DNA of 64,000 nucleotides from Terriglobia bacterium (GCA_963664115.2 CAXWPJ010000010.1:416001-480000); one strand, 5' to 3'; shown: positions 1 to 55,028, numbered from the stretch's first letter. Notes: generated by a model from the letters alone, not told the origin. Program-made: numbers and translations.

Positions 1-65
1 ATCGGAACCGCGACGATCAAAGCACCGAGAGACAGGGACAGATGGATCACGATCTTCCTCTTCAT
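1..65 (-). CDS. 5' end of a secreted protein, probably DUF6152-like (runs off the window edge)
   Basis: GGAGG RBS, then ATG at 65 reading MKRKIVIHLSLSLGALIVAVP (signal-peptide-like). It lies next to a family member that is paired with DUF6152 elsewhere in this window. Confidence 0.45.
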   Translation of the reverse strand, partial: MKRKIVIHLSLSLGALIVAVP

Positions 66-225
66 GGGTGACCTCCGTCTTGCTTCAAGACTCCCTGCAT
101 CCTAAGGAACTAAGCTGATTGTAAAGACAGCTCCCGCCACGCGGTCAATTCTGAGATCAAGCTGCCCATAAGCCCGCGTTTCTGGTTCCGGCCCCAGGTC
201 CAGGTGAAGGGCCACCTGCAGGTTA

Positions 226-1116
226 CTAGTTGTCGTTCTCGACGCCGCTGGCGGCGTTGCCGAACAACTCGTTATATTGTTGCATCTCTACCGGCGAGCA
301 GTACATCTCCATGACATCGGTATGGGGGTCTGCCAACTTAAACATGATCTTCATGGTCATCCAGGGTTTTGTATAAACCTTGGGGTCGTCAATCGTCTCC
401 GTCCACTCCATGTGGTCGCTATCCACACGGCGGAAAACTTCCTCTACGGTTACCGCGTCGCTGATCGGCCGACCTGTAGAATCGAGCCAGACTCTGTCTT
501 CCGGCATCATCCCCACCGTCTGGACGACCAGTGTGTAATCATCGGTCCACTTGCCAACCGAGTACCCATACCACCGTGGCTCCTTAAATGTTCCGCCCGC
601 CATCACGCCTCCCTCAACTATCTTGGGGAGCTCTCGCCCATCGATCCAGATGTCCCGCGACCTGTTGTCATATTCATACAGGATCGCGATCTTATATGGG
701 TTCTGAAAGATCTGCGTCATCCTGACGTTGTAGTGATTGATGCGCGGGAATCCTAACGGCTCGCACTTATTCCTCGGATCATTACCAAACGCCGGGAGAA
801 CTGCGTCGACGCCCTCCAGTGCCTTATTGCTCCTGTATAATTCCAACCCGTAAGGAGTGTAAGGCAATGCATGTTCCGGCTTCCCGTCGTTTGGCATGGC
901 CTGCACGCCACCGAACTGGATTGCGCCCCCCGGCCCGCTGGCCGGCGTCCAAGTCCCCGAAAGGTCACGACGTGGAGCAGGTCCTGGTTCGGAACTATCA
1001 GCCGCTTCCGGCGGCCGCCGACCCTGGGCGCGCGTATCAGGCGAGAGTGCCAACACTGTGAATGCTGTAAATACCGCAATCAACACAGTCGCCGGAAACA
1101 GAAAAGGCTTTGCCAT
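226..1116 (-). CDS. Secreted hypothetical protein (GxWxxDTLVV / C-x-P-x-G family)
   Basis: 296-aa ORF with signal peptide. Motifs DPRNKCEPLG, GYSVGKWTDDYTLVV and DDPKVYTKPW; paralog of 19107-19859. Confidence 0.8.
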   Translation of the reverse strand: MAKPFLFPATVLIAVFTAFTVLALSPDTRAQGRRPPEAADSSEPGPAPRRDLSGTWTPASGPGGAIQFGGVQAMPNDGKPEHALPYTPYGLELYRSNKALEGVDAVLPAFGNDPRNKCEPLGFPRINHYNVRMTQIFQNPYKIAILYEYDNRSRDIWIDGRELPKIVEGGVMAGGTFKEPRWYGYSVGKWTDDYTLVVQTVGMMPEDRVWLDSTGRPISDAVTVEEVFRRVDSDHMEWTETIDDPKVYTKPWMTMKIMFKLADPHTDVMEMYCSPVEMQQYNELFGNAASGVENDN

Positions 1117-1192
1117 TTGGAAACCCCTCCGACTTCAAGTTAGCCTACATTTTACTTACCCGAAATAAATTTTTAGCCCTCCCTCCGGAAGC

Positions 1193-1459
1193 GTGGAGTA
1201 TACACCCGTTTCGGGCACTGGAATTCTCGTAGCCGTACCGATTCAAACCAGTCCGACGTTTGCAACGAGTAGACTGCGGGAATTGTTTCCACTTGCTCGG
1301 TTACGAGCTATGAATAATGTCGCTAACTACGACATCGAACCTGAAGGTGAGAGATTCATCATGACGACAGAGGACGAGGCAGGGGAGGCATCCTCGAAAC
1401 AAATCAACATCGTCCTGAACTGGTTTGAGGAACTGAAAGAACGGGTGCCGGTGCCATAG
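1193..1459 (+). pseudogene. C-terminal relic of a Ser/Thr protein kinase with a TolB/WD40-like tail
   Basis: Translation ends NYDIEPEGERFIM...QINIVLNWFEELKERVPVP*, the characteristic terminus of acidobacterial kinase-beta-propeller proteins. No kinase domain is present upstream. Confidence 0.75.
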
Positions 1460-1588
1460 TTTTTGAGTTCAAGTCCTGATAAATCGCAGTATGAAAGGAC
1501 GCCCCTAGACTGGGGGTTGTTGAGAGAAGACTCACTCAACAACCTGATCAACGTATACAGCGTTGATCCCAGAAAAGGAGCGTTCGAG

Positions 1589-2653
1589 ATGAAACAAGAC
1601 AAGTATATGGGTATGGATGTGCACCAGGCAACGACGGTGGTTGCGGTGAGAGACGGGAGCGGCAAACTGGTGTTTGAAACGATCGTGGAAACCGAGGCGG
1701 GGAGTATCACACGGCTGCTGGAGGGATTGAGTGGGCCGATGCACGTGGGGTTGGAGGAGACCACGCAAGCGGGCTGGTTATCGGAAGTGATCCGGCCGTG
1801 GGTGAGCGAGGTGGTGGTGTGCGATCCGCGACAGAACAAGTGGATGCAAGAAGGGTCGAAGGGGGATAAGCCGGATGCGCGGAAGCTGGCCGAGCTGTTG
1901 CGGGTGGGACTGTTGCGCTCGGTGTATCACGGCCATGAAGCGACGCGAGAATTGAAGCAACTGGTGCAGGCCTATGACACGTTCCAGTTGGACACGCAAC
2001 GGGTGATGTCGCGGATCAAAGCGATATACCGGGGACGGGGGATCCCGACACCGAAGGACGGAGTCTATCGGCCGAGTCAGCGCGAACAGTGGTTGGAGAA
2101 GCTGACCGAGCCGGGGATGAGGCAGCGCGCCCGATGGTTGTATGCGGAACTGGACCAGGTCCAGTTGCTGCGGAAACAATCCAGAAAAGCGGTGCGAGTG
2201 GAGGGCCGGCACCATGAGGCGGTGAAACTGCTCGAGACCATTCCACAACTGGGACCGGTTCGGGCGGCACAGATCGTCGCCATCGTGGACACGCCGTACC
2301 GATTCCGCACGACACCGCAGTTCTGGAGCTACAGTGGCCTGGGTGTGGTGACCCACATGAGCGCGGAGTATGAGATGCAGAGTGGACGTGTGGTGCGACG
2401 GAGGAAACCGGTGGCCACACGCGGATTGAATGCGAACTGCAACCGGCGATTGAAGTCGGTGTTCTTCTCAGCCGCGGCATCGGGAAAACAAAGCGAGCCG
2501 TATCGGATTTATCTGGAGAGTCTCCAGATGCGTGGGATGCGGGAGGAAATGGCGCGGGTCACTCTGGCCCGTAAGATCGCCGCACTGGTGCTGACGCTTT
2601 GGAAGAAAGGAGAATCGTTCGATCCAAAGAAACTGAGCTGGATGACAACATAA
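1589..2653 (+). CDS. IS110 family transposase/recombinase
   Basis: AGGAG RBS before ATG 1589. DEDD RuvC-like motifs (GMDVH, LEE, DKPDA) and C-terminal IPQLGPV, YSGL and LARKIA motifs. Confidence 0.93.
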   Translation: MKQDKYMGMDVHQATTVVAVRDGSGKLVFETIVETEAGSITRLLEGLSGPMHVGLEETTQAGWLSEVIRPWVSEVVVCDPRQNKWMQEGSKGDKPDARKLAELLRVGLLRSVYHGHEATRELKQLVQAYDTFQLDTQRVMSRIKAIYRGRGIPTPKDGVYRPSQREQWLEKLTEPGMRQRARWLYAELDQVQLLRKQSRKAVRVEGRHHEAVKLLETIPQLGPVRAAQIVAIVDTPYRFRTTPQFWSYSGLGVVTHMSAEYEMQSGRVVRRRKPVATRGLNANCNRRLKSVFFSAAASGKQSEPYRIYLESLQMRGMREEMARVTLARKIAALVLTLWKKGESFDPKKLSWMTT

Positions 2654-2719
2654 GCCGTTTCGATCCGTGACCGGTAGAGCCGTACTGAGTCGTTAGACGG
2701 AGTCGGAACAACTGAGGAT

Positions 2720-2845
2720 CGAGGGTGAGGATCTGCACAAGATGTGGTCCCTGGATACGTCCAGAGGACACTTTTAAATCTCTATCCCCCCTCGCACGAC
2801 CTGAAACAGCGATAGCCTTCGAGGCTCAGATAGATCCATGGTCGG
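2720..2845 (+). ncRNA. Predicted bridge/seek RNA of IS110 element 1 (target loop and donor loop)
   Basis: Two stem-loops. Their internal loops carry ACAAGATG and TAAATC (match the target) and GCGAT and ATAGATC (match the circle junction). True transcript ends are unknown. Confidence 0.75.
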
Positions 2846-3368
2846 CACATGCCGTCCCATATGCTGTTCAGTTTCTGAATCGACCGTCTTAAAGATGTAC
2901 GATTTCGCTCCGGATTGCCGGAACCAGGGCTTCACATAACGGTAGAGGGGCTGGCTGTCACGACAAAAGTGTCCGTCTGGCCGGCCATCGGGGAGCTGTT
3001 TCTCTTGACATCCCCTTTCATAGATCATCTTGTCGGAAGTTGAGAATTGGATTGTGTGGTTTTCGTCGATCCCGAGAGTAGGAAATAGAGACAGTTCTTT
3101 TGTTTTCCTATTGAATAAGACTGGATTCCAGGACTGTGACGGCTCTGAGCCGTTGGTCCAATCCGCCGACCGTCGTCCGGCAGAGCATCAGCGCCGCATA
3201 CCCCAGACACATGCCCCCGCCAATGGTCCATTCCCGGCGAGTTCTGGACAGGTTCAAAACGCTTTCGTTCACGACGTGGAGCCGAAACGTTTGTCAGTCA
3301 AACTTGTCAGAAACTTTCTCGGTGATTGCATTCTGCTTGGACTCGATATTCGAGTGCGCTATTTTTCG

Positions 3369-5753
3369 CTAGCCGCTCAACCATCCCGGCAGAATAGCCT
3401 TGATCTGGTTCCAATAGATCGCGCCGAGAATTACGACAGCGAGCAGGGCGAATAGGGAAACCGCACCGACACGAGTCCAACGAGTTCCTCCGTGGCCGGT
3501 CTGACGTAGGAAGAGGGTGACCAGATCGCGGCGTTCCTTGCGTGCCCCTTCTGGCAAGTGGGGCGTGTGGCTGAAGAGGTATCCGAGCCGCCGCGTCATG
3601 TACATGCGGAAGTTCACCGCCCAGCCGCAGGCCTCCAACAGAGCGCTCATGTCCCGCTTGCGCAGCTTGTTCCAACCCGCAAGGGCACTGAACAGGGCCA
3701 CCACGAGAACCAGGCTCATCAAGGTAATGCCGACCCTCAGAAGGCTGATTTCCGAAAGTGTGCTGATCAGGTAGGCCAGCGATGAACCGATGGCGGCGAA
3801 GGCAATGCCGCCGCCAAGCAGCAGGTCGCGCATGCCAATGCCAGATTGGGGTGGGGCTTGGGCCGATGGCGCCTCGGCAGGCTGCTGGAGCGATTCGCCT
3901 GCTTCCATCTTCGTCGTGACCTCGGTCGTGGCCTTTTCCAGGGATCCCGCCTGGGTGCCTACAAAGGCTTCAACCTTCTCGGATATTAGTTTCTTGGCTT
4001 TCACAAAAGGCGACTTGACCGCTTCGCCCAGGCTGATGGGGTTCTCGATCAAATCCACCACTCGTGCGTCCCACTCATTGCCATCGAGATCATAGAAGAT
4101 ACCGCGCTTGCCAATTTCGATGGCCCCCTGGCCGCCGGAGGTGAGAGCGGCGGCAATCTCGAAACTGGGCCCCAGCCCCTCGGGTACAGTGATCTCGGCG
4201 TACACCAGGTACATCTCGCTGGCCTGGGCGATCTTCTTGTGCTCGGCGCGATTTCGGACCTTTGTCGTGAATGTAAGTTCACGGCCGTCAATGATCAGGT
4301 CGCCCAATTCAAACAGGGCGCGGCGATCCGGGTCGTACATCGCGGAGAAACTTACAAAGTTGTTGGCCAGTTCCAGGAGCCAGCGTTGGTACAGGATGAG
4401 CGTCTCCAGGTCCGTCACCTGCTTCACTTCATCCTTCACCGCTAGATCCTCCAGCAGGAGCTCGAAGAGCCTCTTCTCGGCCGGACCATCTAAATATTCC
4501 CTCAGCGTTGTCTCGCTGATCCGTCCGACGCCATCCGACGGCTTTCCCGCCTGCCACCCTCGGTAGGGCTCGAAAATGGCCTGGACCTGCCCCCAGCCGA
4601 TCCGCGTGAGAGATTGGCGGGAGTTTGGCTGGGCACGGGCAAGGACCCGATTTTGTAATTCGTCCATCTGTTCCCGGTAGTACGGATTGATGGGGCCCCG
4701 CAGATTCAACACACCTTCAGCGTTTGGCGTTTGCAGGGGCGCTCGCGCGAGCTGACTTCTCAGAGCTTCCAGGTCGGAGCCGTCCAGGTTCCAGAGATCG
4801 TGTTCATTCAGGCAGATGCGTTCGGCGGTGCGGGCATCGAGCTGGACCATGTCGCATTGCAAGAAGAACTGTCGGATCTTGGCATCGAACTCCGACGTGA
4901 GCTTCACCGCGGCCGCCGTGTCGCCGCCCCAGGGCAGAATCCCTGCCGCGCCGTCATCTTCGGCGAGCGTCTTCCAGTCCAGGTACGTCCTCGCACGATC
5001 CAGGAATTGGCGCAGGTGATCTTCGTTTATTCCGTCTGCGCCGCTGATGTCCTTGGTACTGCCGACCTGTTTGAGTACGTCCGCTGCCAACTGTGCCGCC
5101 CCGGGATCCGAAACGTGCTCGGGGGGGAGCACCCCGTCGCCGTTGGGAGGCAATTTCCCATATGTATTCTGAAATACGCGGACCTGTTCGAGGCTGATCT
5201 GGTCCATGTTCTTTGCCTTCAACTGGCCCAGGATATGGATCGCGGCTTCCTGGAGCCCCCGGCCCTCCTCGTGGCTGGTATCCAGGTCCGCGAGGCGCAG
5301 GACATCGGAGGACTCAGCCATTCGGTCTCTCGTTGCCATCATATGGAATGTCCAGGTCACTCCCGCCCGCAAATGCTCGGCACGGATTGTCCCGCTGCCA
5401 TCCTGATTCAAGTACTTGAGGAACGCGGGATCGCATTGCAGGCTTTCGATCTGCACACTGGTGGCAGCCCAGCGAGCGGGGTGGAGCTGGTGAATGAAGG
5501 CCAAATCCTCCGCACTCTCGATGCGCAGTTGGTGGATGCCGCCGTAATTTCGAAAGACAATGGGCTTCACAACCCACATTCTACTCTGGAGTGTCCCGGC
5601 CGCGTGGGTGCCACACGTATTTTCGCCGCGATCCGGTTTCCGAAGGTGCGGGTGGCGATTCGTTAGTTTCTTGTCGAAATCCGTTAGATTTCCTTTCTTG
5701 CGATCATGTTCTGAAAATCCGCTCAGGGGCGCGAGCGGCAGAACTGACGTCAA
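3369..5753 (-). CDS. Large uncharacterised protein with C-terminal transmembrane helices
   Basis: 794-aa ORF; the true start is probably near 5579 (MWVVKPIVFRNYGG). It has an EF-hand-like NQDGSGTI motif and about three hydrophobic segments at the C-terminus. Confidence 0.8.
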   Translation of the reverse strand: MTSVLPLAPLSGFSEHDRKKGNLTDFDKKLTNRHPHLRKPDRGENTCGTHAAGTLQSRMWVVKPIVFRNYGGIHQLRIESAEDLAFIHQLHPARWAATSVQIESLQCDPAFLKYLNQDGSGTIRAEHLRAGVTWTFHMMATRDRMAESSDVLRLADLDTSHEEGRGLQEAAIHILGQLKAKNMDQISLEQVRVFQNTYGKLPPNGDGVLPPEHVSDPGAAQLAADVLKQVGSTKDISGADGINEDHLRQFLDRARTYLDWKTLAEDDGAAGILPWGGDTAAAVKLTSEFDAKIRQFFLQCDMVQLDARTAERICLNEHDLWNLDGSDLEALRSQLARAPLQTPNAEGVLNLRGPINPYYREQMDELQNRVLARAQPNSRQSLTRIGWGQVQAIFEPYRGWQAGKPSDGVGRISETTLREYLDGPAEKRLFELLLEDLAVKDEVKQVTDLETLILYQRWLLELANNFVSFSAMYDPDRRALFELGDLIIDGRELTFTTKVRNRAEHKKIAQASEMYLVYAEITVPEGLGPSFEIAAALTSGGQGAIEIGKRGIFYDLDGNEWDARVVDLIENPISLGEAVKSPFVKAKKLISEKVEAFVGTQAGSLEKATTEVTTKMEAGESLQQPAEAPSAQAPPQSGIGMRDLLLGGGIAFAAIGSSLAYLISTLSEISLLRVGITLMSLVLVVALFSALAGWNKLRKRDMSALLEACGWAVNFRMYMTRRLGYLFSHTPHLPEGARKERRDLVTLFLRQTGHGGTRWTRVGAVSLFALLAVVILGAIYWNQIKAILPGWLSG

Positions 5754-5983
5754 TAGTTCGGCTCGATTGGCGTCGCTTTTCTGCTGCGGAGGCCTTGTTC
5801 TGGGCCGTCGTGGACATCATCAACTTAAGCTGTTCGATGGCGTTTTCGGCTCCCTCTGTCGCCTCCGGCGACAGTTTTGCCGGCATCTGGCCATCCATTG
5901 CACTGCAAACCCTGCTGCCGAGTAGAGGAAGCCACTATCGGTCCGTAGGTATCCCCTTGGCCGTATCCGCCGTTTCCGGCATC

Positions 5984-5998
5984 GTGCCCGTGCCCTGA
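5984..5998 (+). pseudogene. Last codons (VPVP*) of a deleted kinase gene
   Basis: GTGCCCGTGCCCTGA ends 12 nt before site B, the same terminus and spacing as at 1459 and 15380. Confidence 0.55.
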
Positions 5999-6119
5999 TC
6001 TTCAAGGTCAAGTCCTGTATCTGGACTCCTCTGTCAAGTAGGCGCAGCTCTCCCGTCAGCTTTCTTCGGCAAAATGCATTCAGCAGGACTGACTAGAAGT
6101 TACGAGGTGAGTAGCTAGT

Positions 6120-7966
6120 CCCTGAACAAGCGTGATTGACGAGGAAATGATAGTGCAATAAGAGCGGAAGTACCCGAAATGCCCCCTCTCCGTGCGAAAA
6201 AAACCTTGAACAGATTCTTCGGAAAAGGAGGCATTTCAGATGAACGATTATACGCGCAAGAACATGAGGAACCGCAAGCGGCGAATCGAACGTCGGCTTG
6301 GGGACCGGCATTGGACGGATCAGGTAGAGCCGATGTTTTCGGCGAGCAACATTCAGTACGAGATGGGAGAGCGGACGCGGGGCACATCGGTTGGTGGTAT
6401 CGGGACGATGCAACTGGTGGCGCGGCGGACCGGGCTGATCGAAGCCATCGACAAGGGCGTGCATGTGTTGAAGCGGCACCTGCCGTATCACGAGTCGGAT
6501 CACGTGCTGAACATCGCCTACAACGCCTTGAGCGGAGGAACGTGCCTGGAAGACATCGAACTGCGGCGCAACGATGCGGTGTATCTGGATGCGCTGGGAG
6601 CGCAACGGATTCCGGATCCGACGACGGCGGGAGACTTCTGCCGGAGATTCGAGGCCGACGACGTGGAGTGTCTGATGGAGGCAACCAATCAAGTCCGGCT
6701 CGGAGTCTGGCGACAGCAACCGGCGGCGTTTTTCGAAGAAGCGGTGTTGGACGCGGACGGGACACTGGCCGAAACCACGGGGGAATGCAAGCAAGGGATG
6801 GACGTGGCCTACGACGGGACGTGGGGATATCACCCGCTGATGATCTCGCTGGCCAACACCGCCGAACCGCTGTATCTGGTCAATCGTAGCGGCAACCGGC
6901 CGTCGCATGAAGGAGCCGCGGTCCGGTTCGACCAAGCCATCGCATTGTGCCGGCATGCGGGGTTTCGCCAGATCCTGCTGCGCGGGGACACGGACTTCAG
7001 CCAGACCCGGCATCTGGACGGATGGGACGACCAGCAGGTGGGTTTCATATTCGGGATTGACGCGATGGCGAACCTGAAGGCCCGGGCCGATGAACTGGAG
7101 CCGCGCCAGTGGAAGCGCCTGGAACGGCCCGCGAAATACGACGTGGCGACCGAACCGCGCCAACGTCCCGACAACGTGAAGGAAGAGATCGTTCGGCAGC
7201 GCGGTTTCGACAATATCCGCTTGCAGGGTGAGGATGTGGCCGAGTTTCGGTATCGACCCGGAGCCTGCGATCGGGACTACCGTGTCGTCGTGGTGCGGAA
7301 GAATCTGTCGGTGGCCAAAGGAGAGCAGGTGTTGTTTGACGACATCCGGTACTTCTTCTACATTACCAACCGTTCGGATCCGGCCGACCAGATTGTGATG
7401 CGTGCCAATCAACGGTGCAATCAGGAGAATCTCATTGAGCAGTTGAAGAACGGCGTTCAGGCGTTGCGGATGCCGGTCGGAGATCAGACCAGCAACTGGG
7501 CCTACATGGTGATCGCGTCACTGGCCTGGACACTGAAAGCGTGGTTTGCATTGCTGCTTCCCGAAACCGGACGTTGGGGCCAAAAATATCAGGCTGAGAA
7601 GCAAACCGTGCTGCGCATGGAGTTCAAAACCTTCTTGAACGCTTTCATGCTTGTGCCGTGCCAACTCGTGCGCACCGGGCGGCGCATTCTGTTCCGGATC
7701 CTGGCCTGGAACCGGTGGTTGCCGGTCTTGTTCCGCGGGGTGGATGTGTTGCGTCAGCCTCTGCGATGTTGACCCGATCATGACTCTGAGCCCGGGCGAT
7801 CGAGGTCCCGGTTTCTGTCAACCGTCCAACACCAGCGAGGCTGAACTGAAACAGATTCAACAGAAACTCGATACCTGGAACAGGCCATCCGGGAACGGGA
7901 TTCTATGCCTCGAATTCTATCGGCGCGAACTGGGCCTCGGCGGACTGGTTATGCGCTTGTTTTGGG
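6120..7966 (+). mobile_element. IS1380 family element, copy 1 (1847 bp)
   Basis: Ends CCCTGAACAAGCG and CGCTTGTTTTGGG; 6-bp TSD GCTAGT on both sides. Confidence 0.95.
6240..7772 (+). CDS. IS1380 family DDE transposase
   Basis: 510 aa with LDADGT, GYHPL, LRGDTDF and RCNQENLIEQLK motifs; five near-identical copies in the window. Confidence 0.93.
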   Translation: MNDYTRKNMRNRKRRIERRLGDRHWTDQVEPMFSASNIQYEMGERTRGTSVGGIGTMQLVARRTGLIEAIDKGVHVLKRHLPYHESDHVLNIAYNALSGGTCLEDIELRRNDAVYLDALGAQRIPDPTTAGDFCRRFEADDVECLMEATNQVRLGVWRQQPAAFFEEAVLDADGTLAETTGECKQGMDVAYDGTWGYHPLMISLANTAEPLYLVNRSGNRPSHEGAAVRFDQAIALCRHAGFRQILLRGDTDFSQTRHLDGWDDQQVGFIFGIDAMANLKARADELEPRQWKRLERPAKYDVATEPRQRPDNVKEEIVRQRGFDNIRLQGEDVAEFRYRPGACDRDYRVVVVRKNLSVAKGEQVLFDDIRYFFYITNRSDPADQIVMRANQRCNQENLIEQLKNGVQALRMPVGDQTSNWAYMVIASLAWTLKAWFALLLPETGRWGQKYQAEKQTVLRMEFKTFLNAFMLVPCQLVRTGRRILFRILAWNRWLPVLFRGVDVLRQPLRC

Positions 7967-7974
7967 GCTAGTCG

Positions 7975-8107
7975 ACTGCACCCGTATCTTCGGCCTCAAA
8001 AGTGGAACTGTATTGTTCCAGGCCATGATGGAAATTTGCGCGCGGGGAGCCAACCGATAAAATAACGGCCTCTAAGGGCCAAAGGACTTGTCGGCGTTGC
8101 CCCGCGC
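7975..8107 (-). ncRNA. Predicted bridge/seek RNA of IS110 element 2
   Basis: On the minus strand the stem GCGCGGGG/CCCCGCGC encloses CAAGTCCT and TTTATC (target match). The next loop holds CCATCAT and AGATA (donor-junction match). Confidence 0.75.
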
Positions 8108-8178
8108 CGGTCTGACCGGTACGCCATCATCTCGAACCTCATCGCAGCTCGCTGAAAAGATATTCCGACTGTTCCGGG

Positions 8179-9213
8179 TCAGGCCGCCTGATACCGGGCC
8201 TGATGGTCACAGTCACGGTTCCAAACCGCCCACACGCGACGCGCCAACTTGTTGGCCAGTGCAACGATTGCCTTGTTGTGTCCGCGGAACTCGTGTTTCT
8301 GGAGACCCCATTGCTGGAGAGGTGTCGGTGTGGCGCCCTCTCGATGGGCACTCCACAACAGGGAACGGCCCCCATGAACCAACAGCATCCGGAGGTAACG
8401 ATCGCCTTGCTTACTGATCCGGCCCATGCGTCGCTGGTTGCCACTGGAATGTTCCCGGGGTGTGAGTCCCAGATAACTGGCAAAATGGCGGGACGTTCGG
8501 AATCGTTTGATGTTTCCAACAAACCCCACCATTGCCGTTGCCGTTAACAGGCCGATGCCGGGAATCGACGTCAGACGCGCGACCTCAGGCATCTGCCGAG
8601 CCAGCGTCTTCAACTCTTGTTCCACCGATCGCATGCGAGATTCCAATTCACGGATCTCGCCACACACCTGGTGAAACATCTCCCGAACGACACTGGGGAT
8701 GACGACATCTGCATCTTCGATCAGCTCCATTACCCCCGGCACCAGATGATCCGCTCCGGTCGGGATCACGTAGCCAAACTCCCGTAACAACCCCCGCACC
8801 GTATTGATCCGTGCGGTTCGGGTTCGCATCCACGCCGAACGGATTCGATGCAATGAGGTCAGTTGCTGTTGGGCCAGGGTTTTGACCGGCACTGGATGAA
8901 TATCGCTGTCACGATAGGCTTCCAACAATCCTTTCACATCCGTACGGTCGGTCTTGTTGCGCCTGACGTAGGGCGTCACATACTGCGGCGAGATCAGAAC
9001 GACCGTGTGTCCCAGTTCCCGGATCTTCCGACCCCAGTAATGGGCGGATCCGCAGGCTTCCATCACCACGGTCGCCAGCTCCTGGTTCGCAAAGAACCCC
9101 AGAAACTTTGCCCGACTTAAACGATAGGTTTTCTCTACATGCCCGGGGCGATCTGAAACACCAATTTGAAAAACATTCTTTGCCAGATCCACTGCTATCG
9201 TTCTATTCTTCAT
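8179..9213 (-). CDS. IS110 family transposase/recombinase
   Basis: MKNRTIAVDLAKNVFQ, MEACG, KTDRTD, SIPGIG, LGLTPREHSSG, GRISKQGD and ALANKLAR motifs. Confidence 0.95.
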   Translation of the reverse strand: MKNRTIAVDLAKNVFQIGVSDRPGHVEKTYRLSRAKFLGFFANQELATVVMEACGSAHYWGRKIRELGHTVVLISPQYVTPYVRRNKTDRTDVKGLLEAYRDSDIHPVPVKTLAQQQLTSLHRIRSAWMRTRTARINTVRGLLREFGYVIPTGADHLVPGVMELIEDADVVIPSVVREMFHQVCGEIRELESRMRSVEQELKTLARQMPEVARLTSIPGIGLLTATAMVGFVGNIKRFRTSRHFASYLGLTPREHSSGNQRRMGRISKQGDRYLRMLLVHGGRSLLWSAHREGATPTPLQQWGLQKHEFRGHNKAIVALANKLARRVWAVWNRDCDHQARYQAA

Positions 9214-9373
9214 CTCGGACTCCTTTTTGTTCACACGTACACGTGTTTCGCCCGCTTTATTGCGAGGCTCAAAATGACTTTGGCACTTCGATGCCGACTC
9301 AGTCATCAAAGAGGAGTCCATACCATCAATAAATCATCTTCTCGGACGTTGAGAAACCCGCTGATTCAAATCA

Positions 9374-9402
9374 TTGCTTCCAACCCACTCGTTCTATAGC
9401 TT
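9374..9402 (+). promoter_or_regulatory. Putative sigma70 promoter between site B and the kinase start
   Basis: TTGCTT-N17-TAGCTT, about 50 nt upstream of ATG 9452. Confidence 0.4.
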
Positions 9403-9451
9403 TCTCGAGCTTTTTCACGTTTAGCAACATCAGAGACAAGGCCCCGAGCGT

Positions 9452-9568
9452 ATGCCCCTCACGTCAGGCACAAAACTCGGTCCGTTTGAGATCCGTGATG
9501 CGATAGGTGCGGGTGGCATGGGCGAAGTCTATCGGGCCACCGATACGCGGCTGGGCCGCACTGTTTAG
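9452..9568 (+). pseudogene. N-terminal relic of a Ser/Thr protein kinase
   Basis: Reads MPLTSGTKLGPFEIRDAIGAGGMGEVYRATDTRLGRTV*, a Hanks-type glycine loop truncated just before the VAIK lysine. Confidence 0.88.
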
Positions 9569-9719
9569 GGCTCTGTATCGGACTGAGAATTATGATAAGA
9601 AGTGTGACATGATGCGGTCTTCGAATCTGGATGTTCACGGTTCTGGGTGTTATCCAGGAATACGCCCGCATTCCTGTTGAGAGATACGACCCGCAACCTG
9701 AACAGCAATGAGCGCTAGT

Positions 9720-11566
9720 CCCAAAACAAGCGCATAACCAGTCCGCCGAGGCCCAGTTCGCGCCGATAGAATTCGAGGCATAGAATCCCGTTCCCGGATG
9801 GCCTGTTCCAGGTATCGAGTTTCTGTTGAATCTGTTTCAGTTCAGCCTCGCTGGTGTTGGACGGTTGACAGAAACCGGGACCTCGATCGCCCGGGCTCAG
9901 AGTCATGATCGGGTCAACATCGCAGAGGCTGACGCAACACATCCACCCCGCGGAACAAGACCGGCAACCACCGGTTCCAGGCCAGGATCCGGAACAGAAT
10001 GCGCCGCCCGGTGCGCACGAGTTGGCACGGCACAAGCATGAAAGCGTTCAAGAAGGTTTTGAACTCCATGCGCAGCACGGTTTGCTTCTCAGCCTGATAT
10101 TTTTGGCCCCAACGTCCGGTTTCGGGAAGCAGCAATGCAAACCACGCTTTCAGTGTCCAGGCCAGTGACGCGATCACCATGTAGGCCCAGTTGCTGGTCT
10201 GATCTCCGACCGGCATCCGCAACGCCTGAACGCCGTTCTTCAACTGCTCAATGAGATTCTCCTGATTGCACCGTTGATTGGCACGCATCACAATCTGGTC
10301 GGCCGGATCCGAACGGTTGGTAATGTAGAAGAAGTACCGGATGTCGTCAAACAACACCTGCTCTCCTTTGGCCACCGACAGATTCTTCCGCACCACGACG
10401 ACACGGTAGTCCCGATCGCAGGCTCCGGGTCGATACCGAAACTCGGCCACATCCTCACCCTGCAAGCGGATATTGTCGAAACCGCGCTGCCGAACGATCT
10501 CTTCCTTCACGTTGTCGGGACGTTGGCGCGGTTCGGTCGCCACGTCGTATTTCGCGGGCCGTTCCAGGCGCTTCCACTGGCGCGGCTCCAGTTCATCGGC
10601 CCGGGCCTTCAGGTTCGCCATCGCGTCAATCCCGAATATGAAACCCACCTGCTGGTCGTCCCATCCGTCCAGATGCCGGGTCTGGCTGAAGTCCGTGTCC
10701 CCGCGCAGCAGGATCTGGCGAAACCCCGCATGCCGGCACAATGCGATGGCTTGGTCGAACCGGACCGCGGCTCCTTCATGCGACGGCCGGTTGCCGCTAC
10801 GATTGACCAGATACAGCGGTTCGGCGGTGTTGGCCAGCGAGATCATCAGCGGGTGATATCCCCACGTCCCGTCGTAGGCCACGTCCATCCCTTGCTTGCA
10901 TTCCCCCGTGGTTTCGGCCAGTGTCCCGTCCGCGTCCAACACCGCTTCTTCGAAAAACGCCGCCGGTTGCTGTCGCCAGACTCCGAGCCGGACTTGATTG
11001 GTTGCCTCCATCAGACACTCCACGTCGTCGGCCTCGAATCTCCGGCAGAAGTCTCCCGCCGTCGTCGGATCCGGAATCCGTTGCGCTCCCAGCGCATCCA
11101 GATACACCGCATCGTTGCGCCGCAGTTCGATGTCTTCCAGGCACGTTCCTCCGCTCAAGGCGTTGTAGGCGATGTTCAGCACGTGATCCGACTCGTGATA
11201 CGGCAGGTGCCGCTTCAACACATGCACGCCCTTGTCGATGGCTTCGATCAGCCCGGTCCGCCGCGCCACCAGTTGCATCGTCCCGATACCACCAACCGAT
11301 GTGCCCCGCGTCCGCTCTCCCATCTCGTACTGAATGTTGCTCGCCGAAAACATCGGCTCTACCTGATCCGTCCAATGCCGGTCCCCAAGCCGACGTTCGA
11401 TTCGCCGCTTGCGGTTCCTCATGTTCTTGCGCGTATAATCGTTCATCTGAAATGCCTCCTTTTCCGAAGAATCTGTTCAAGGTTTTTTTCGCACGGAGAG
11501 GGGGCATTTCGGGTACTTCCGCTCTTATTGCACTATCATTTCCTCGTCAATCACGCTTGTTCAGGG
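9720..11566 (-). mobile_element. IS1380 family element, copy 2
   Basis: Same ends as copy 1; TSD GCTAGT on both sides. Confidence 0.95.
9914..11446 (-). CDS. IS1380 family transposase
   Basis: Protein identical to 6240-7772. Confidence 0.93.
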   Translation of the reverse strand: MNDYTRKNMRNRKRRIERRLGDRHWTDQVEPMFSASNIQYEMGERTRGTSVGGIGTMQLVARRTGLIEAIDKGVHVLKRHLPYHESDHVLNIAYNALSGGTCLEDIELRRNDAVYLDALGAQRIPDPTTAGDFCRRFEADDVECLMEATNQVRLGVWRQQPAAFFEEAVLDADGTLAETTGECKQGMDVAYDGTWGYHPLMISLANTAEPLYLVNRSGNRPSHEGAAVRFDQAIALCRHAGFRQILLRGDTDFSQTRHLDGWDDQQVGFIFGIDAMANLKARADELEPRQWKRLERPAKYDVATEPRQRPDNVKEEIVRQRGFDNIRLQGEDVAEFRYRPGACDRDYRVVVVRKNLSVAKGEQVLFDDIRYFFYITNRSDPADQIVMRANQRCNQENLIEQLKNGVQALRMPVGDQTSNWAYMVIASLAWTLKAWFALLLPETGRWGQKYQAEKQTVLRMEFKTFLNAFMLVPCQLVRTGRRILFRILAWNRWLPVLFRGVDVLRQPLRC

Positions 11567-11591
11567 GCTAGTTTGGAAAGGAGAGAATCCC

Positions 11592-13507
11592 GTGGCGAAA
11601 CCGAAAAAGAGTGGAGTCAACCGTCGTGGTTTCTTGAAAGGTACGGCAATCGGTGCAGCGGCGTTGGTGACGCCGGTGCCGCTCACGCAGGCGCAACAAG
11701 CCGGCCCGCAGCCGGGCACGGCCGCACTGCCCTCTTCCGCGGAGTTGGCGGCCGAGACTGAGCCGCTGCCGCCAGACAGTCAAGTTTTGACCGTGCAGGA
11801 CGCCGGCTCGGATTTCATGGTGGACGTCTTCAAGTCGCTTGGCTTCGAATACATCGCCTCGAATCCCGGTTCGAGTTTCCGAGGTCTTCAGGAGTCATTT
11901 ATCCATTACGGCGGTAACCAGAATCCCGAGTGGCTGACTTGCTGCCATGAAGAGTCATCGGTTGCATTAGCCGACGGCTACTTCCGAGTTTCAGGCAAGC
12001 CAATGATGGTCATGGCGCATGGAACAGTAGGGTTGCAGCACGCGGCGATGACGATCTATAACTCCTTCGTTGCCCGGACCCCCGTTTATATCGTCCTCGG
12101 TAACGCTCTCGACGCCAACACCAGGCGGCCCGGCGTGGAGTGGAATCACAGCGTGCAGGATGCGGCGGCGATGGTTCGCGACTACATCAAGTGGGACGAT
12201 ACGCCGTATTCGCTGCAACACTTTGCCGAGTCGGCTGTGCGGGCCTACAAGATTGCGATGACCGTGCCGATGGCGCCGGTCGTACTGGTGGCCGATGGCG
12301 ACCTGCAGGAGTTCCCGACCGGGGACCGTTCCAGATTGCGTATCCCAAAGCTGACGGTGACGAGGCCGCCCGCGGCCTCTCCCGAAGCATTGGCTGAAGT
12401 GGCCCAATTGCTTGTGGCCGCGGAAGACCCCGTGATCGTTGCCGGCAACGCGGCGCGTACGGAAGAAGGAATGCGACTGATGGTTGAACTGGCTGAGACG
12501 CTTCAGGCGCCGGTGCAAGGGGGTAGCCGCAACATGCCCAATCGGCACTCCTTGAGTGGTGGCGGTGCGCTCGGCAATGCGGACGTGATTCTCGGTCTGC
12601 AGGTGAACGATTTCTGGGGGACGACCCATAGGCTCCGCGATCAGCAGGAACGCTCGTACCGATCAATTACCAAACCCGACGCTAAACTTATTAGCATCTC
12701 CACGAACGATCTGTACACAAAAAGCAACTATCAGGACTTCCAGCGCTACGCTGAGCTGGACATGGCGATTGCTGCCGACGTGGAAGCGACCCTCCCATCG
12801 TTGATCGAGGCCTGCAGGCGGCTCATCACGGGGGATCGCAGGCGTGTCCTCGAGGAGCGCGGCAACAGAATTGCTGCCACAAATGCACAGGCTTTGGCGC
12901 GCGCACGCACGGCAGCGACTCACGGATGGAATGCCAGCCCGATCAGCACCACGCGAATGGCTATGGAGTTGTGGGAAGCAGTTAGAACCAAAGACTGGGC
13001 GCTGGTGCGGGCTGGAAGGAGCACCCAACTGTGGAATATCGATAGGTTCTATCGGACAATAAGCGGCGGGGGCGCAGCTGCTGTTGGCTCCGGCCTTCCG
13101 ACGTCTGTCGGTGCGGCGCTCGCCCACAGGCCATATGGGCGGCTGTGTATCGGCATTCAGAATGACGGAGACATGATGTATGCGCCGGGGCCCTGTGGAC
13201 TGCCGCGCACCACCGCATTCCGCTGTTGCTGGTCATGCATAACAACCGCGCGTATCACCAGGAAGTCATGCACATCCAGCGCATGTCCAACCGTCGGCAG
13301 CGCGGAGTGACGACGGCAACCGACGGCGTTGGGACGAAGATTGAAGATCCCAATATCGATTACGCAACACTTGCCCGAAGCATGGGTCTGTACGGGGAAG
13401 GGCCCATTTCCAATCCCAATGACCTGGGACCGGCGCTACGGCGCGCGGTCGAGCGGGTGGAACAGGGCGAACCGGCACTGGTCGACGTCGTGACTCAACC
13501 CCGATAG
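11592..13507 (+). pseudogene. Thiamine-diphosphate-binding enzyme with twin-arginine signal, frameshifted near 13187-13190
   Basis: NRRGFLK Tat motif, HEES, GDMMY; continues in another frame as HNNRAY...LVDVVTQPR. One G appears to be missing in a G-run, which could be a sequencing error. Confidence 0.8.
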
Positions 13508-13520
13508 GAGGAAAGCGCAG

Positions 13521-13901
13521 ATGTCAGCTGCCATGCGATTCTTGATCATCATGTCCTCCATATTAGTGATGGGCTCGACCCTAAGCGCGCCGACGCTGGC
13601 GCAGGCTCCCGACGTCGCGGTGCCGAGCGGCGACGTCGAAAACGGCAGGCAAATTTACGTCACGTACGGATGCTACCAATGTCACAATTATGCGGCTCAT
13701 GGCGGCAGAGCCGGGCCGCGGCTTGCTCCACGTCCCATAGCCTTTAGGGCGTTCGCTCGTTACGTGCGCACGCCGAGCAATCAGATGCCGCCTTACACCA
13801 CTGAGATCGTCACCGATCAAGAGCTGGCTGATATCTACGCTTTCCTGTTGACTGTGCCACCTCCACCCGCTGTAGACAGCATCCCGATTCTCAACGACTA
13901 G
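13521..13901 (+). CDS. Monoheme cytochrome c
   Basis: Signal peptide, CYQCH and distal MPPY. Confidence 0.9.
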   Translation: MSAAMRFLIIMSSILVMGSTLSAPTLAQAPDVAVPSGDVENGRQIYVTYGCYQCHNYAAHGGRAGPRLAPRPIAFRAFARYVRTPSNQMPPYTTEIVTDQELADIYAFLLTVPPPPAVDSIPILND

Positions 13902-14197
13902 TCACACCCGCACAGCGACGCCGTGATACGCGCCGCTGTGCGTTTCCATTGCTGAAACGTCGACGTTGCCACGGAGTTATTCAAAAGCGGTAACCCCAGG
14001 ACGACCTCGGGACCGGGGCGGCGCTGCTCCAGGCGTTGCTGAAGGGAATCGGGAGTAGTCTTCGCCCAGGCTATCGAGTAAGTTCGGACCATGGTCTTCT
14101 GGAGCTGGCATAGCGAAGTGGATTTCGTCGAGGAAGGCCGTTTTTCGGGGGCTTTCTAGTTACCGCGAAGGCGGTAACACATCCATGTGACCTTTCA

Positions 14198-14226
14198 TTG
14201 ACCCCAAGTCCCCTCCCTCGTATTAT
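14198..14226 (+). promoter_or_regulatory. Putative sigma70 promoter
   Basis: TTGACC-N17-TATTAT upstream of the gene at 14435. Confidence 0.55.
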
Positions 14227-14434
14227 TCAGCCAGATTTTCTAGGTTCTCTTAGCGACACGCAAAAAGCATGGTATCCAGCGCACAGCCAGGCAATTCAAA
14301 GGCAGGATGGCAGAAGTGCTGAAAGCCAAGGACGAAAAACTGGTCGGCGTGATTGAGGGAATCGTTTTCCTAGACATCGACGTTCAAAAATCCTAGCTAT
14401 AGCCCCACAAGCCATAAAACCAGAGGGTAATGCC

Positions 14435-15196
14435 ATGAAGTTTCTTCTGAGTGCCCTAGCCGCCGTCACAGCGGCAGCTAACATTTGCGCATTGGCCCAG
14501 GACTCTGGCGTCGTGCGTGTCCTTAGTTCTAATGGAGTGCGAGTTGTGCTCGAGGAGATGCAGCCGCAGATCGAACAGAGCATAGGACGACGGCTCGCGT
14601 TTGAGTTTAGTACTTCGCGAACTCTGACGGACCGGATCGAGGCAGGCGAAGCATTCGACGTGGCCATACTTACGCCGAGACTCATCGATGAGTTGATCTC
14701 GTTGCAGAAGGTGACGCCAGGGTCGAGCAACGAGTTCGCTCGAGTCGGCATTGGCGTAGGGAGTCGACAGGGAGCGCCTGTCAAGAGCGTCGACACACTG
14801 GAGGACCTCCGACGGACATTTCTAGAGGCGGAATCAGTTGCCTTCGGCTCGGACGGTCAGAGCCGACGAACCAACGAAGCAAGCTTCGAGGCCCTGGGCA
14901 TCGAAGATGAAATGCAGAGCAAGACGACATTGACGGGTCCGGGTGAAGCGCCCGTGCTCGTCGCGGAGGGTGAGATCGAGTTAGTACTGACCCTGGTCAG
15001 CGAGTTGTTACGCGAGCCAGGCGTTCAGCTACTTGGGCCACTGCCTCCTGAGGTCCAGGCATATGTCCACTTTGCCGCGGCCATGAGTGCGGGCGCTGGG
15101 GATCCAAGCACGGCGAGAACGCTTATCAACTTCTTATCGACCCCTGCTTTTGGAGCGGCTCTGGAGAAAAATGGTCTGGAGCCGATGAATCCGTAG
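14435..15196 (+). CDS. ModA-like periplasmic substrate-binding protein (orphan)
   Basis: Signal peptide; RIEAGEAFDVAILT, ARVGIGV, VAEGEIEL and LGPLPPEVQ motifs; no permease nearby. Confidence 0.8.
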   Translation: MKFLLSALAAVTAAANICALAQDSGVVRVLSSNGVRVVLEEMQPQIEQSIGRRLAFEFSTSRTLTDRIEAGEAFDVAILTPRLIDELISLQKVTPGSSNEFARVGIGVGSRQGAPVKSVDTLEDLRRTFLEAESVAFGSDGQSRRTNEASFEALGIEDEMQSKTTLTGPGEAPVLVAEGEIELVLTLVSELLREPGVQLLGPLPPEVQAYVHFAAAMSAGAGDPSTARTLINFLSTPAFGAALEKNGLEPMNP

Positions 15197-15321
15197 CGTT
15201 GAACCCTCCAATGCGAGCAGGATCACATGCCTGCAGGCGGACGTCGAAATTTCGTTGCCGCCCTATCCACCCGTTTTGCGGACAGTCTCCAGTTATCTAT
15301 ACTCTGATTCGACAGACACTT

Positions 15322-15380
15322 AAATCAACGTGGTCTTGATTCGGTTTGAAGAACTGAAGGAACGGGTGCCGACCCCCTGA
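15322..15380 (+). pseudogene. Degenerate C-terminus of a kinase gene
   Basis: INVVLIRFEELKERVPTP*, closely similar at DNA level to 1402-1459. Confidence 0.75.
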
Positions 15381-15392
15381 TTCCCGAGGTCA

Positions 15393-15420
15393 AGTCCTGA
15401 CAAATCATCTTCTCGGACGT
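15393..15420 (+). repeat. dif-like site C (intact)
   Basis: AGTCCTGACAA-ATCATC-TTCTCGGACGT; imperfect inverted arms that extend to TCAA...TTGA. Confidence 0.8.
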
Positions 15421-15538
15421 TGAGAAACCATGTGGCACGTATAAATTCCTGACACCCTCCGATCTCTCAAGTCACGCCACCCGGTTCTTGTGCAAAAAAG
15501 TCAATTGAACTGGTTGTCACCAGGTTACACTCCGAGGA

Positions 15539-15926
15539 ATGGGACGCGGCATCGGCTTCATTTCGTTGATTCTTGCGGCGGCAGTCGGGGCATATCTTTA
15601 CTCAGAGCAGGCCAGTAACGTCACGCCGGGTGGCGGTGGACCGACAGATGCTATTGATGTGACCAGCGTGCGAATGGATCTCATAGGAATCGCCCAAGCC
15701 GAACGCACGTACTTTGCTACGAATGGCAGGTACGCTTCGCTGGATGAACTGCGCGCCAACGGTGACACGCAAATCACCCGCGACAGACGTCCCAACTATA
15801 CGTACTCCGTCGAGACCAGCAACCAGCAACGCAGGCTTCAGGATTATCGCTGACTACTCCGGCCCTGATCCTAATGCGACCAAACGCATCAGCGTTGACG
15901 AAACGCTCACCGTGCGTACTGAGTAG
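15539..15926 (+). pseudogene. Pilin-like hypothetical protein, frameshifted by a 7-bp duplication
   Basis: N-terminal TM helix and AQAERTYFATNGRYASLDEL. ACCAGCA is duplicated at 15815-15828; removing one copy fuses ORFs 15539 and 15714. Confidence 0.7.
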
Positions 15927-15961
15927 ACAGAACCGGCTATTCGGACAACAGTCCATTCTCA

Positions 15962-15989
15962 AGTCCTGAGAAATCATCTTGTCGGACAT
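15962..15989 (+). repeat. dif-like site D (intact)
   Basis: AGTCCTGAGAA-ATCATC-TTGTCGGACAT. Confidence 0.8.
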
Positions 15990-16234
15990 TGAAAATTGGC
16001 AGATTACTGAGGTTTACTTTGTGCAATTTTCTACGATGTCGTTTCGCAGGAATTGAGAATTATTTAGCACCTAACGCCCTCCCTTAGTATTTTTTATAGA
16101 GTTTTTCACAGTTCAATTTGGGACACACTATGTAGCTTCAGCATCTGGTGCGCGCGATTGGCCGTTGCCCGCGTGCGCCGTGCTAAGGCATCCCGCGTCT
16201 CCCGGAAGACGCGGTGTGTGCGATTGTTTCCCAG

Positions 16235-40166: not shown

Positions 40167-40634
40167 ATGGCTGACTTGGAAACAGGCCCCCTACAGAGCA
40201 GTCCCGACGACGAGAACCTCCGGGACGGGCTTGAGGAATTAGAAGAACTACGCCGGGAGCGGCGAGAATTTTTTACAAAGGTCTTCTTTGGATTTCTTGG
40301 CCTGGTGGCACTCGTCGCACTCGTGGTTTTTTTCCCCACAATAAACCGGCGCGCTGCAGGCGGTCTGAGGGCCGGTCAAGAGGCCATCGTCAGCAGGGCG
40401 TCCGTCGTCGGTGTGGACTTCGAGGCGTGGACCGAAGTGGCGGCTCTTGAGAACAACAATAACCAGATAGCGCTCAACCAGCTGATGGGCACGGGTCGAG
40501 CCTTCATCGTGAACGAAGGGTCGGACGTAGTTATTCTTGAAGTCAGATTCAACAGTGTGATGGTCCGCGCCTTGGACGGTACCAACGCCGGGAAGGAGGG
40601 CTGGCTGCGCTCGGGGAGCCTACGGGCCAACTAG
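40167..40634 (+). CDS. Hypothetical membrane-anchored protein
   Basis: 155 aa with one TM helix and an SH3-like GKEGWL tail; its stop codon lies in the IS target CTAG. Confidence 0.65.
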   Translation: MADLETGPLQSSPDDENLRDGLEELEELRRERREFFTKVFFGFLGLVALVALVVFFPTINRRAAGGLRAGQEAIVSRASVVGVDFEAWTEVAALENNNNQIALNQLMGTGRAFIVNEGSDVVILEVRFNSVMVRALDGTNAGKEGWLRSGSLRAN

Positions 40635-40635
40635 T

Positions 40636-42482
40636 CCCAAAACAAGCGCATAACCAGTCCGCCGAGGCCCAGTTCGCGCCGATAGAATTCGAGGCATAGA
40701 ATCCCGTTCCCGGATGGCCTGTTCCAGGTATCGAGTTTCTGTTGAATCTGTTTCAGTTCAGCCTCGCTGGTGTTGGACGGTTGACAGAAACCGGGACCTC
40801 GATCGCCCGGGCTCAGAGTCATGATCGGGTCAACATCGCAGAGGCTGACGCAACACATCCACCCCGCGGAACAAGACCGGCAACCACCGGTTCCAGGCCA
40901 GGATCCGGAACAGAATGCGCCGCCCGGTGCGCACGAGTTGGCACGGCACAAGCATGAAAGCGTTCAAGAAGGTTTTGAACTCCATGCGCAGCACGGTTTG
41001 CTTCTCAGCCTGATATTTTTGGCCCCAACGTCCGGTTTCGGGAAGCAGCAATGCAAACCACGCTTTCAGTGTCCAGGCCAGTGACGCGATCACCATGTAG
41101 GCCCAGTTGCTGGTCTGATCTCCGACCGGCATCCGCAACGCCTGAACGCCGTTCTTCAACTGCTCAATGAGATTCTCCTGATTGCACCGTTGATTGGCAC
41201 GCATCACAATCTGGTCGGCCGGATCCGAACGGTTGGTAATGTAGAAGAAGTACCGGATGTCGTCAAACAACACCTGCTCTCCTTTGGCCACCGACAGATT
41301 CTTCCGCACCACGACGACACGGTAGTCCCGATCGCAGGCTCCGGGTCGATACCGAAACTCGGCCACATCCTCACCCTGCAAGCGGATATTGTCGAAACCG
41401 CGCTGCCGAACGATCTCTTCCTTCACGTTGTCGGGACGTTGGCGCGGTTCGGTCGCCACGTCGTATTTCGCGGGCCGTTCCAGGCGCTTCCACTGGCGCG
41501 GCTCCAGTTCATCGGCCCGGGCCTTCAGGTTCGCCATCGCGTCAATCCCGAATATGAAACCCACCTGCTGGTCGTCCCATCCGTCCAGATGCCGGGTCTG
41601 GCTGAAGTCCGTGTCCCCGCGCAGCAGGATCTGGCGAAACCCCGCATGCCGGCACAATGCGATGGCTTGGTCGAACCGGACCGCGGCTCCTTCATGCGAC
41701 GGCCGGTTGCCGCTACGATTGACCAGATACAGCGGTTCGGCGGTGTTGGCCAGCGAGATCATCAGCGGGTGATATCCCCACGTCCCGTCGTAGGCCACGT
41801 CCATCCCTTGCTTGCATTCCCCCGTGGTTTCGGCCAGTGTCCCGTCCGCGTCCAACACCGCTTCTTCGAAAAACGCCGCCGGTTGCTGTCGCCAGACTCC
41901 GAGCCGGACTTGATTGGTTGCCTCCATCAGACACTCCACGTCGTCGGCCTCGAATCTCCGGCAGAAGTCTCCCGCCGTCGTCGGATCCGGAATCCGTTGC
42001 GCTCCCAGCGCATCCAGATACACCGCATCGTTGCGCCGCAGTTCGATGTCTTCCAGGCACGTTCCTCCGCTCAAGGCGTTGTAGGCGATGTTCAGCACGT
42101 GATCCGACTCGTGATACGGCAGGTGCCGCTTCAACACATGCACGCCCTTGTCGATGGCTTCGATCAGCCCGGTCCGCCGCGCCACCAGTTGCATCGTCCC
42201 GATACCACCAACCGATGTGCCCCGCGTCCGCTCTCCCATCTCGTACTGAATGTTGCTCGCCGAAAACATCGGCTCTACCTGATCCGTCCAATGCCGGTCC
42301 CCAAGCCGACGTTCGATTCGCCGCTTGCGGTTCCTCATGTTCTTGCGCGTATAATCGTTCATCTGAAATGCCTCCTTTTCCGAAGAATCTGTTCAAGGTT
42401 TTTTTCGCACGGAGAGGGGGCATTTCGGGTACTTCCGCTCTTATTGCACTATCATTTCCTCGTCAATCACGCTTGTTCAGGG
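40636..42482 (-). mobile_element. IS1380 family element, copy 3 (non-matching flanks)
   Basis: Flanks are ACTAGT and TCTAGG. Confidence 0.95.
40830..42362 (-). CDS. IS1380 family transposase
   Basis: Protein identical to copy 1. Confidence 0.93.
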   Translation of the reverse strand: MNDYTRKNMRNRKRRIERRLGDRHWTDQVEPMFSASNIQYEMGERTRGTSVGGIGTMQLVARRTGLIEAIDKGVHVLKRHLPYHESDHVLNIAYNALSGGTCLEDIELRRNDAVYLDALGAQRIPDPTTAGDFCRRFEADDVECLMEATNQVRLGVWRQQPAAFFEEAVLDADGTLAETTGECKQGMDVAYDGTWGYHPLMISLANTAEPLYLVNRSGNRPSHEGAAVRFDQAIALCRHAGFRQILLRGDTDFSQTRHLDGWDDQQVGFIFGIDAMANLKARADELEPRQWKRLERPAKYDVATEPRQRPDNVKEEIVRQRGFDNIRLQGEDVAEFRYRPGACDRDYRVVVVRKNLSVAKGEQVLFDDIRYFFYITNRSDPADQIVMRANQRCNQENLIEQLKNGVQALRMPVGDQTSNWAYMVIASLAWTLKAWFALLLPETGRWGQKYQAEKQTVLRMEFKTFLNAFMLVPCQLVRTGRRILFRILAWNRWLPVLFRGVDVLRQPLRC

Positions 42483-54982: not shown

Positions 54983-55028
54983 GACGCAAATAACACAGCT
55001 GAGAGCCTCTTACGTTCCCCCTACTAGA

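Follow-up and report, generated by a model that had tools for sequence, protein, structure and literature searches.

Integron attC sites carry R and L boxes and are at least about 55 bp long, and some phages integrate single-stranded DNA at dif. Insertion sequences of the IS1111 group and group IIC introns are both described as being attracted to attC (PMC3001079), and the IS1111-attC group (ISKpn4, ISPa25, ISPst6) is described as entering one end of this cassette recombination site at a fixed position and in a fixed orientation (PMC11187229). In its account of IS1111 elements, the same source gives a 7+3 rule for the ends and a guide order in which the complement of the top strand comes first, while a second loop that matches the joined ends is presented as a feature of bridge RNA (PMC11208160). 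Specialization of IS1111 elements on repeated sites is already known, and the convergence described here adds a new example.

We analyzed a 64,000-nucleotide stretch of DNA from a Terriglobia bacterium (the window), in which two IS1111-type elements occupy two copies, sites A and B, of one 40-bp repeat. Element 2 is like the IS1111-attC group in its transposase, its sub-terminal inverted repeats (IRs), its 7+3 ends, its downstream guide region and its fixed place in one end of the site (PMC11187229). However, its target is the 40-bp repeat rather than attC, so that its membership of that group by target was rejected; three lineages use either arm of the repeat with allele-specific guides, and element 1, from a separate and distant clade, inserts in the spacer. 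Like integron arrays, the repeats stand in the same direction and lie between modules that are co-oriented, mostly hold one gene and turn up again in other neighborhoods, and both IS1111 elements and group II introns insert into them (PMC3001079). Unlike integrons, they have no attC structure and no linked integrase, their arrays are spread over many clusters, their modules end in kinase remnants, and kinase promoters are preceded by a second class of site, in inverted orientation. Short symmetric sites with a 6-bp spacer, bounding modules in chromosomal arrays and hosting a site-specialized insertion sequence, are also described for the Acinetobacter pdif modules and their IS1202-family element ISAjo2 (PMC10132070, PMC12907356), but the 40-bp site is dissimilar to the host dif and mainly direct rather than inverted, and its invaders are predicted RNA-guided DEDD elements inside the site, whereas the IS1202 family is described as DDE elements 5 bp beside it. 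Finally, the predicted RNA-guided use of an abundant intergenic palindrome recalls the REP-targeting elements IS621 and ISPa11 (PMC11208160, PMC11187229), although, unlike REPs, the 40-bp repeat marks the ends of moved modules, keeps a strict orientation and has no hairpin covariation. We found no description of the 40-bp site and its arrays in our searches of open-access main texts. We consider it probable that a distant pair of IS110/IS1111-type elements has been tuned through guide RNAs to a 40-bp double-stranded att site belonging to an integron-like cassette system.

Element 1 (1484..3024, + strand; ends set by the IS1111 7+3 rule, with ATC common to both junctions) splits site A into a left half, comprising the left arm with its T allele and the spacer ATC (1467..1485, +), and a right half (3024..3047, +). 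Its sub-terminal IRs (TATGAAAGG; left copy at 1490-1498 and partner at 3014-3022, +) have the 7+3 spacing and are perfect over only 9 bp, compared to the 11-13 bp that define IS1111. The 354-aa DEDD transposase (1589..2653, +) retains D10, E56, D93, D96 and S258, all invariant in alignment with IS1111 enzymes, and has SA in place of the SG motif at the catalytic serine. It scored 122 bits against NCBIfam NF033542, below the cut-off of 140, its best plasmid hits reached 28-29% identity, and it formed a long separate branch in a quick tree built with no IS110-group outgroup. In the non-coding region downstream, guides were found in the IS1111 order: a predicted target loop (2737..2780, +) made of ACAAGATG (2737-2744) and TTAAATC (2774-2780) with a hairpin between, followed by a predicted donor loop (2806..2836, +) that matched the joined ends at 7/8 and 7/7 positions and in which a core change, ATC/AAC, was mirrored in relatives.

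Element 2 (6018..9328, - strand, including a nested IS1380-type element) lies between the outer left arm of site B (6006..6017, +) and the remainder of that site, with the T allele, spacer and right arm (9329..9356, +), giving the junction CCTG|ATAA. Its sub-terminal IRs (6021-6032 and 9310-9321) match at 11/12 positions, and its ends, with IR extensions of 7 and 3 bp and no target duplication, are those of an IS1111 element. The 344-aa DEDD transposase (8179..9213, -) has the conserved SG motif, scored 316.6 bits in the same NCBIfam model, and has ISKpn4, ISPa25, ISPpu24 and ISPa62 (46-48%) as its nearest named relatives; in the quick tree its clade is sister to the IS1111-attC group, falling with ISKpn4, ISPpu24 and ISPa25, and includes three repeat-targeting lineages. 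Matches to the top strand and then the bottom strand of the target follow in the downstream non-coding region, where the predicted target loop (8056..8090, -) consists of CAAGTCCT (8090-8083) and TTTTATC (8062-8056) around a hairpin, and a possible donor loop (7985..8031, -) of CCATCAT and AGATA around another. In the window copy, the IS1380-type element (6115..7971, +), which encodes a 510-aa DDE transposase (6240-7772, +), splits the distal non-coding region. Empty sites reconstructed for element 2 scored as intact repeats.

Both transposases contain PF01548 and PF02371, each with 16 matches genome-wide that all belong to the families of the two elements, yet they share only 23% identity over 293 residues. 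Long branches separate the two families in the tree, a quick version with no IS110-group outgroup, and since they lie so far apart the convergence on the repeat is real. Transposase relatives were found in Acidobacteriota records. The original prediction, which placed two divergent IS1111-type elements in one repeat, in opposite orientation and at different positions (at the spacer ATC of site A and at the left-arm junction of site B), with different proteins, IRs and guides and with independent origins, agrees with these junctions, with the distinct IRs and target loops, and with the tree.

In both elements two short segments flank a hairpin downstream of the transposase, the first complementary to the right-hand target and the second identical to the left-hand target, the order reported for IS1111 elements (PMC11187229). 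The second loop matching the joined ends, as in bridge RNA (PMC11208160), is also located downstream of the transposase here. Folding z-scores of the non-coding regions were weak and not significant (-1.5 for element 1 and -1.0 for element 2), and no Rfam family was found in window positions 1-17000. From the co-variation of guides and targets described below, and from sequence alone, we strongly infer that a guide RNA from each downstream non-coding region steers insertion. Neither RNA nor a circle or excision joint was seen in the contig data among the 15 of 95 joints listed, and the same data yielded no circle joint or empty-site joint for element 1.

We then compared copies and relatives of the elements, which the original prediction had expected to be enriched in the same motif. 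All 7 element 1 copies in the genome split the repeat at the identical base, and for one of them (C11:1091-2640) an intact empty allele with both flanks kept is present at C6:45054. T at site position 14, which is what the element 1 guide predicts, was found in 7/7 targets compared to 34/134 intact sites (P about 7e-5), and the right-arm GT predicted by the guide in 6/7 compared to 35/134 (P 0.002). Among 24 relatives of element 1, inspected by eye, the 23 at 64-70% identity carry different guides and different flanks, and the sole one to keep both guides and target is 96-97% identical, indicating that targeting of the repeat by element 1 is a recent reprogramming. Six class I sites of the host genome (G000) have a spacer three bases short (C2:255649, C2:269345, C2:757872, C2:1000425, C9:1129203 and C12:552667), 5/6 of them with the T allele, the one in which element 1 is found, compared to 25% expected; these short spacers are perhaps footprints of imprecise excision.

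For element 2, exact right ends of its type adjoined the repeat in 11/11 cases (10 in the left arm and 1, a diverged variant, in the right arm), a count that leaves out eight one-mismatch hits, of which six had no BLAST support and two are diverged remnants (C9:77531 and C7:45106) not clearly in the repeat. Left ends adjoined it in 7/8 cases, the eighth being overwritten by another insertion sequence. In the wider family, compared at 40 loci out of 60 matches, 19/40 insertions were in the repeat and 21/40 elsewhere, and the guide matches the repeat at all 18 in-repeat loci where the loop can be read. Guides change in step with targets, allele by allele: TTTTATC accompanies TTTAT, TTTTCTC accompanies TTTCT and ATTTAAC accompanies TTTAA, and one lineage, with the guide CAACGTCC, has moved over to the symmetric position in the right arm. 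L164 is an exception, with a guide for the C allele and an insertion in the T allele. In the host genome element 2 was found in the T allele only; as both elements take only this minority allele, they draw on the same quarter of the sites and compete for it.

Repeat sites make up 0.17% of the genome, and elements 1 and 2 were in the repeat in every scorable copy. As a control, we scored 71 full IS1380-type copies genome-wide, and none (0/71) had the repeat as its empty site. This family is expanded, with five copies in the window (6115-7971, 9715-11571, 40630-42487, 46133-47985 and 55023-56889); the window also ends in a tandem repeat with a 33-bp unit and at least 5 copies (63839-64000). Other mobile families also use the repeat. 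Ends of elements that we take to be IS30-like, from their Pfam pattern, adjoined a half-site in 27/29 cases scored by eye; group II intron-like elements, one bearing a reverse transcriptase and three short, occupy site arms; and IS91-like integrase elements stand inside sites or about 30 bp away. Eight of the IS91-like elements carry a tyrosine recombinase (C1:93280, C1:108241, C2:196805, C12:35916, C12:158764, C12:487341, C12:569831 and C3:3293), and for seven of these the start lies inside a site or no more than about 33 bp from one. Some sites have been struck twice (L192 and L213).

A matrix search of the host genome detected 184 copies of the repeat and none in the reversed-genome null; 152/184 are intact, and the copies are grouped in 44 clusters. 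The repeat has a 17-6-17 organization, exemplified by an intact class I site (15388..15427, +) and by another (15957..15996, +) that closes a 569-bp one-gene module. The original prediction was right that the motif is abundant and that homologs are enriched in it, and its length of 28 bp has to be corrected to about 40 bp. Class I sites, with the spacer ATCATC (141/184), face the same direction as their class I neighbors in 87 cases compared to 2 in the opposite direction, whereas class II sites (spacer ACGACA/C) are inverted relative to class I (35 versus 3) and stand at the head of a Ser/Thr kinase-PD40 gene, before its promoter and start. Some class I sites have an inverted class II partner at a distance of 55-57 or 146 bp, immediately upstream of a kinase start (C2:90842-90899, C2:771523-771584 and others); folded together, the two sites could make a hairpin in which the spacer is mismatched, comparable to that of the phages that integrate single-stranded DNA at dif. 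A sibling site, a 10-4-6-4-10 palindrome with an inner TATA, gave 15 hits (both strands counted) compared to 0 in the null (C5:204738, C2:772415 and C12:576092 in the host genome; also in G004, G007, G021 and G026), after a first pattern had been dropped for giving 54 real and 137 null hits. It is invaded at equivalent positions by relatives of both elements and by IS91-like elements.

A palindromic target of this kind might be recognized as a folded single strand, REP-like or attC-like. The repeat can adopt a bulged hairpin, at about -10.6 kcal/mol as DNA, element 2 is nearest to attC-targeting elements, and an integron integrase is encoded in the genome (C9:714593-715873). However, compensatory pairing at variable positions was absent (55 observed compared to 58.5 expected, with covariation in 0/15 symmetric pairs), which argues against a REP element with a conserved hairpin; at 40 bp and with no AAC box in its consensus, the repeat is too short for attC and lacks its structure; the 16 kb around the integron integrase contain neither a repeat site nor an attC-like match; and REPs do not bound moved modules. 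We consider a folded target highly improbable.

The distribution of the repeat is narrow. It is confined to 8/401 genomes of the class, all in one family: four members of the genus hold 127, 86, 43 and 8 copies, and four of a sister genus hold 1-3 each. Nine metagenome contigs carry it, four of them with kinase remnants, and viral contigs gave 0 matches.

Modules between sites are frequently bordered by pieces of the kinase gene. In the window, a Ser/Thr kinase-PD40 3' remnant (1193..1459, +) ends just 5' of site A, a 5' remnant (9458..9565, +) lies 102 nt past site B, and the module between the two sites (3048..6005) ends in a decayed kinase 3' remnant, its sole cargo being an ORF of 736-794 aa with no Pfam match (3369-5753, -). 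Divergent copies of this ORF occur at higher depth in contigs of several runs. Genome-wide, 53/106 kinase C-terminal hits end within 250 nt of a site (mostly at exactly 11 nt, the stop codons standing 11 nt upstream of many class I sites) and 36/70 N-terminal hits begin close to a site. Kinase copies survive mostly as end remnants on either side of other cargo, such as hydrolases, GNATs, DUF6152 pairs and receptors. The kinase-PD40 family is heavily amplified across much of the bacterial family. In the sister genus, genes of about 890 aa stand in tandem, head to tail, with overlapping stop and start (L073, L074, L077 and L081), and in genus g10 (L075 and L080) REP-like palindromes, not the 40-bp site, lie between tandem kinase genes.

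This association could mean that the repeat has no recombinase of its own and spread with the amplified kinase end, its modules moving by ordinary homologous recombination within the 40-bp repeat and the conserved ends of the kinase gene, while insertion sequence targeting is still RNA-guided. The frequency of kinase ends near sites, the tandem kinase genes without the 40-bp site in relatives and the failure to find a dedicated recombinase all favor it. Nevertheless, we find this explanation unlikely. Unless a protein binds the site, it is difficult to account for its two-fold symmetric arms and fixed directional spacer, for the inverted second spacer class and for a sibling site of like architecture; in addition, many sites and moved modules have no kinase remnants.

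Evidence independent of the insertion sequences points instead to cassette movement. Two duplicated modules have all their ends at sites (C2:264297-265623 = C6:43763-45089 and C10:252482-252898 = C6:39777-40193), such site-to-site duplicates accounting for 3/52 low-copy alignments, and a 675-bp GNAT cassette from a compact seven-site array of G001, in which most modules hold a single gene, was found again at two positions of the host genome. Cargo was co-oriented in 30 cases compared to 7 (37 clear cases). Long homology between site pairs was found on one side only in 18 cases and on both sides in 9. Against such movement, just 1 of the 49 modules of relatives gave a host-genome match with both of its ends at sites. 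Because arrays run in the same direction and modules recur in different neighborhoods within and between genomes, the repeat is likely a recombination site. The original prediction of a functional recombination site gains from the moved cassettes and the orientation bias; its argument from two independent guides holds for abundance only. It also proposed that every insertion would put a site out of action and leave the adjacent module frozen, a putative effect that is plausible; one element copy (C11:41241) has chimeric flanks, indicating that DNA still rearranges at filled sites.

We searched the host genome and its array-rich relatives for a cognate recombinase and found none tied to the repeat. 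No large serine recombinase is present in the host genome, which has three resolvases, and among the tyrosine recombinases (27, 27 and 12 hits in G000, G002 and G003) only XerC and XerD were common to all three at high identity. IS91-like integrases stand beside or inside sites in G000 and G002 and were not found in G003. A solo tyrosine recombinase of the host genome (C5:52060-53270) lies between two outward-facing class II sites and kinase starts; as a candidate cognate enzyme (C5:52192) it was rejected, the query having no match in G002 or G003.

The Xer result raises the possibility that the repeat is a divergent Xer site worked by the host XerCD in chromosomal islands of pdif-like modules, a reading that differs from our preferred one only in the enzyme. 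The repeat contains an 11-6-11 core, with 8/11 positions of its right arm shared with the XerC arm of the host dif, XerC and XerD are the only close recombinases common to the three array-rich genomes, and dif module islands are described in Acinetobacter (PMC12907356). The match to the XerD arm is only 6/11, a poor fit overall, with no XerD-like arm and the inner TAA/TTA not kept. Moreover, the chromosomal dif is a separate, canonical, single-copy site near the GC-skew switch (C2:108120), with counterparts in 17/35 genomes of the family, so that the repeat is not dif itself; in genus g4 its one to three copies stand in kinase or cassette contexts, not as dif. Most repeat sites are direct, compared to the inverted flanking sites described for pdif modules, and the confinement to a few genomes of the class also argues against XerCD, which we regard as quite improbable, somewhat more so than spread with the kinase end.

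Under the preferred reading of RNA-guided elements on a cassette site, each element would make a guide RNA from its downstream non-coding region, independently tuned to the repeat, and both would occupy the same repeat because each guide is likely tuned to it. The elements would excise as circles and re-insert at places where each of the two guide segments can pair with one target strand; element 1 would enter across the first spacer bases and element 2 in the left arm, from the opposite strand. A tyrosine-type recombinase acting in trans would exchange strands within the 6-bp spacer, such that modules could be cut out and re-inserted between same-direction sites. Several mobile families would converge on these sites as safe landing places because the sites are many and intergenic. 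A broader version, a genome-wide cassette system of about 180 17-6-17 sites in one acidobacterial genus, with a recombinase that is neither IntI nor XerCD, kinase-born modules and at least 4 IS110 lineages reprogramming their guides, is one that we put forward tentatively, leaning slightly against it. Within the reading of a new cassette system, we are similarly a little short of persuaded that the loci may record an arms race of guide versus target on a drifting site.

Together, these results suggest that the convergence of the two elements brings to light an integron-like cassette platform that fits neither the integron nor the pdif model. Identifying its enzyme would add a third gene-cassette mechanism. 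The loci also offer, in two bridge/seekRNA clades that are far apart, single-base guide/target pairs made by nature, among them one core change and one move from arm to arm, so that the mismatch and core rules of IS1111-type recombinases become directly testable, and the guides of IS110 elements could be used as probes for unannotated recombination sites.
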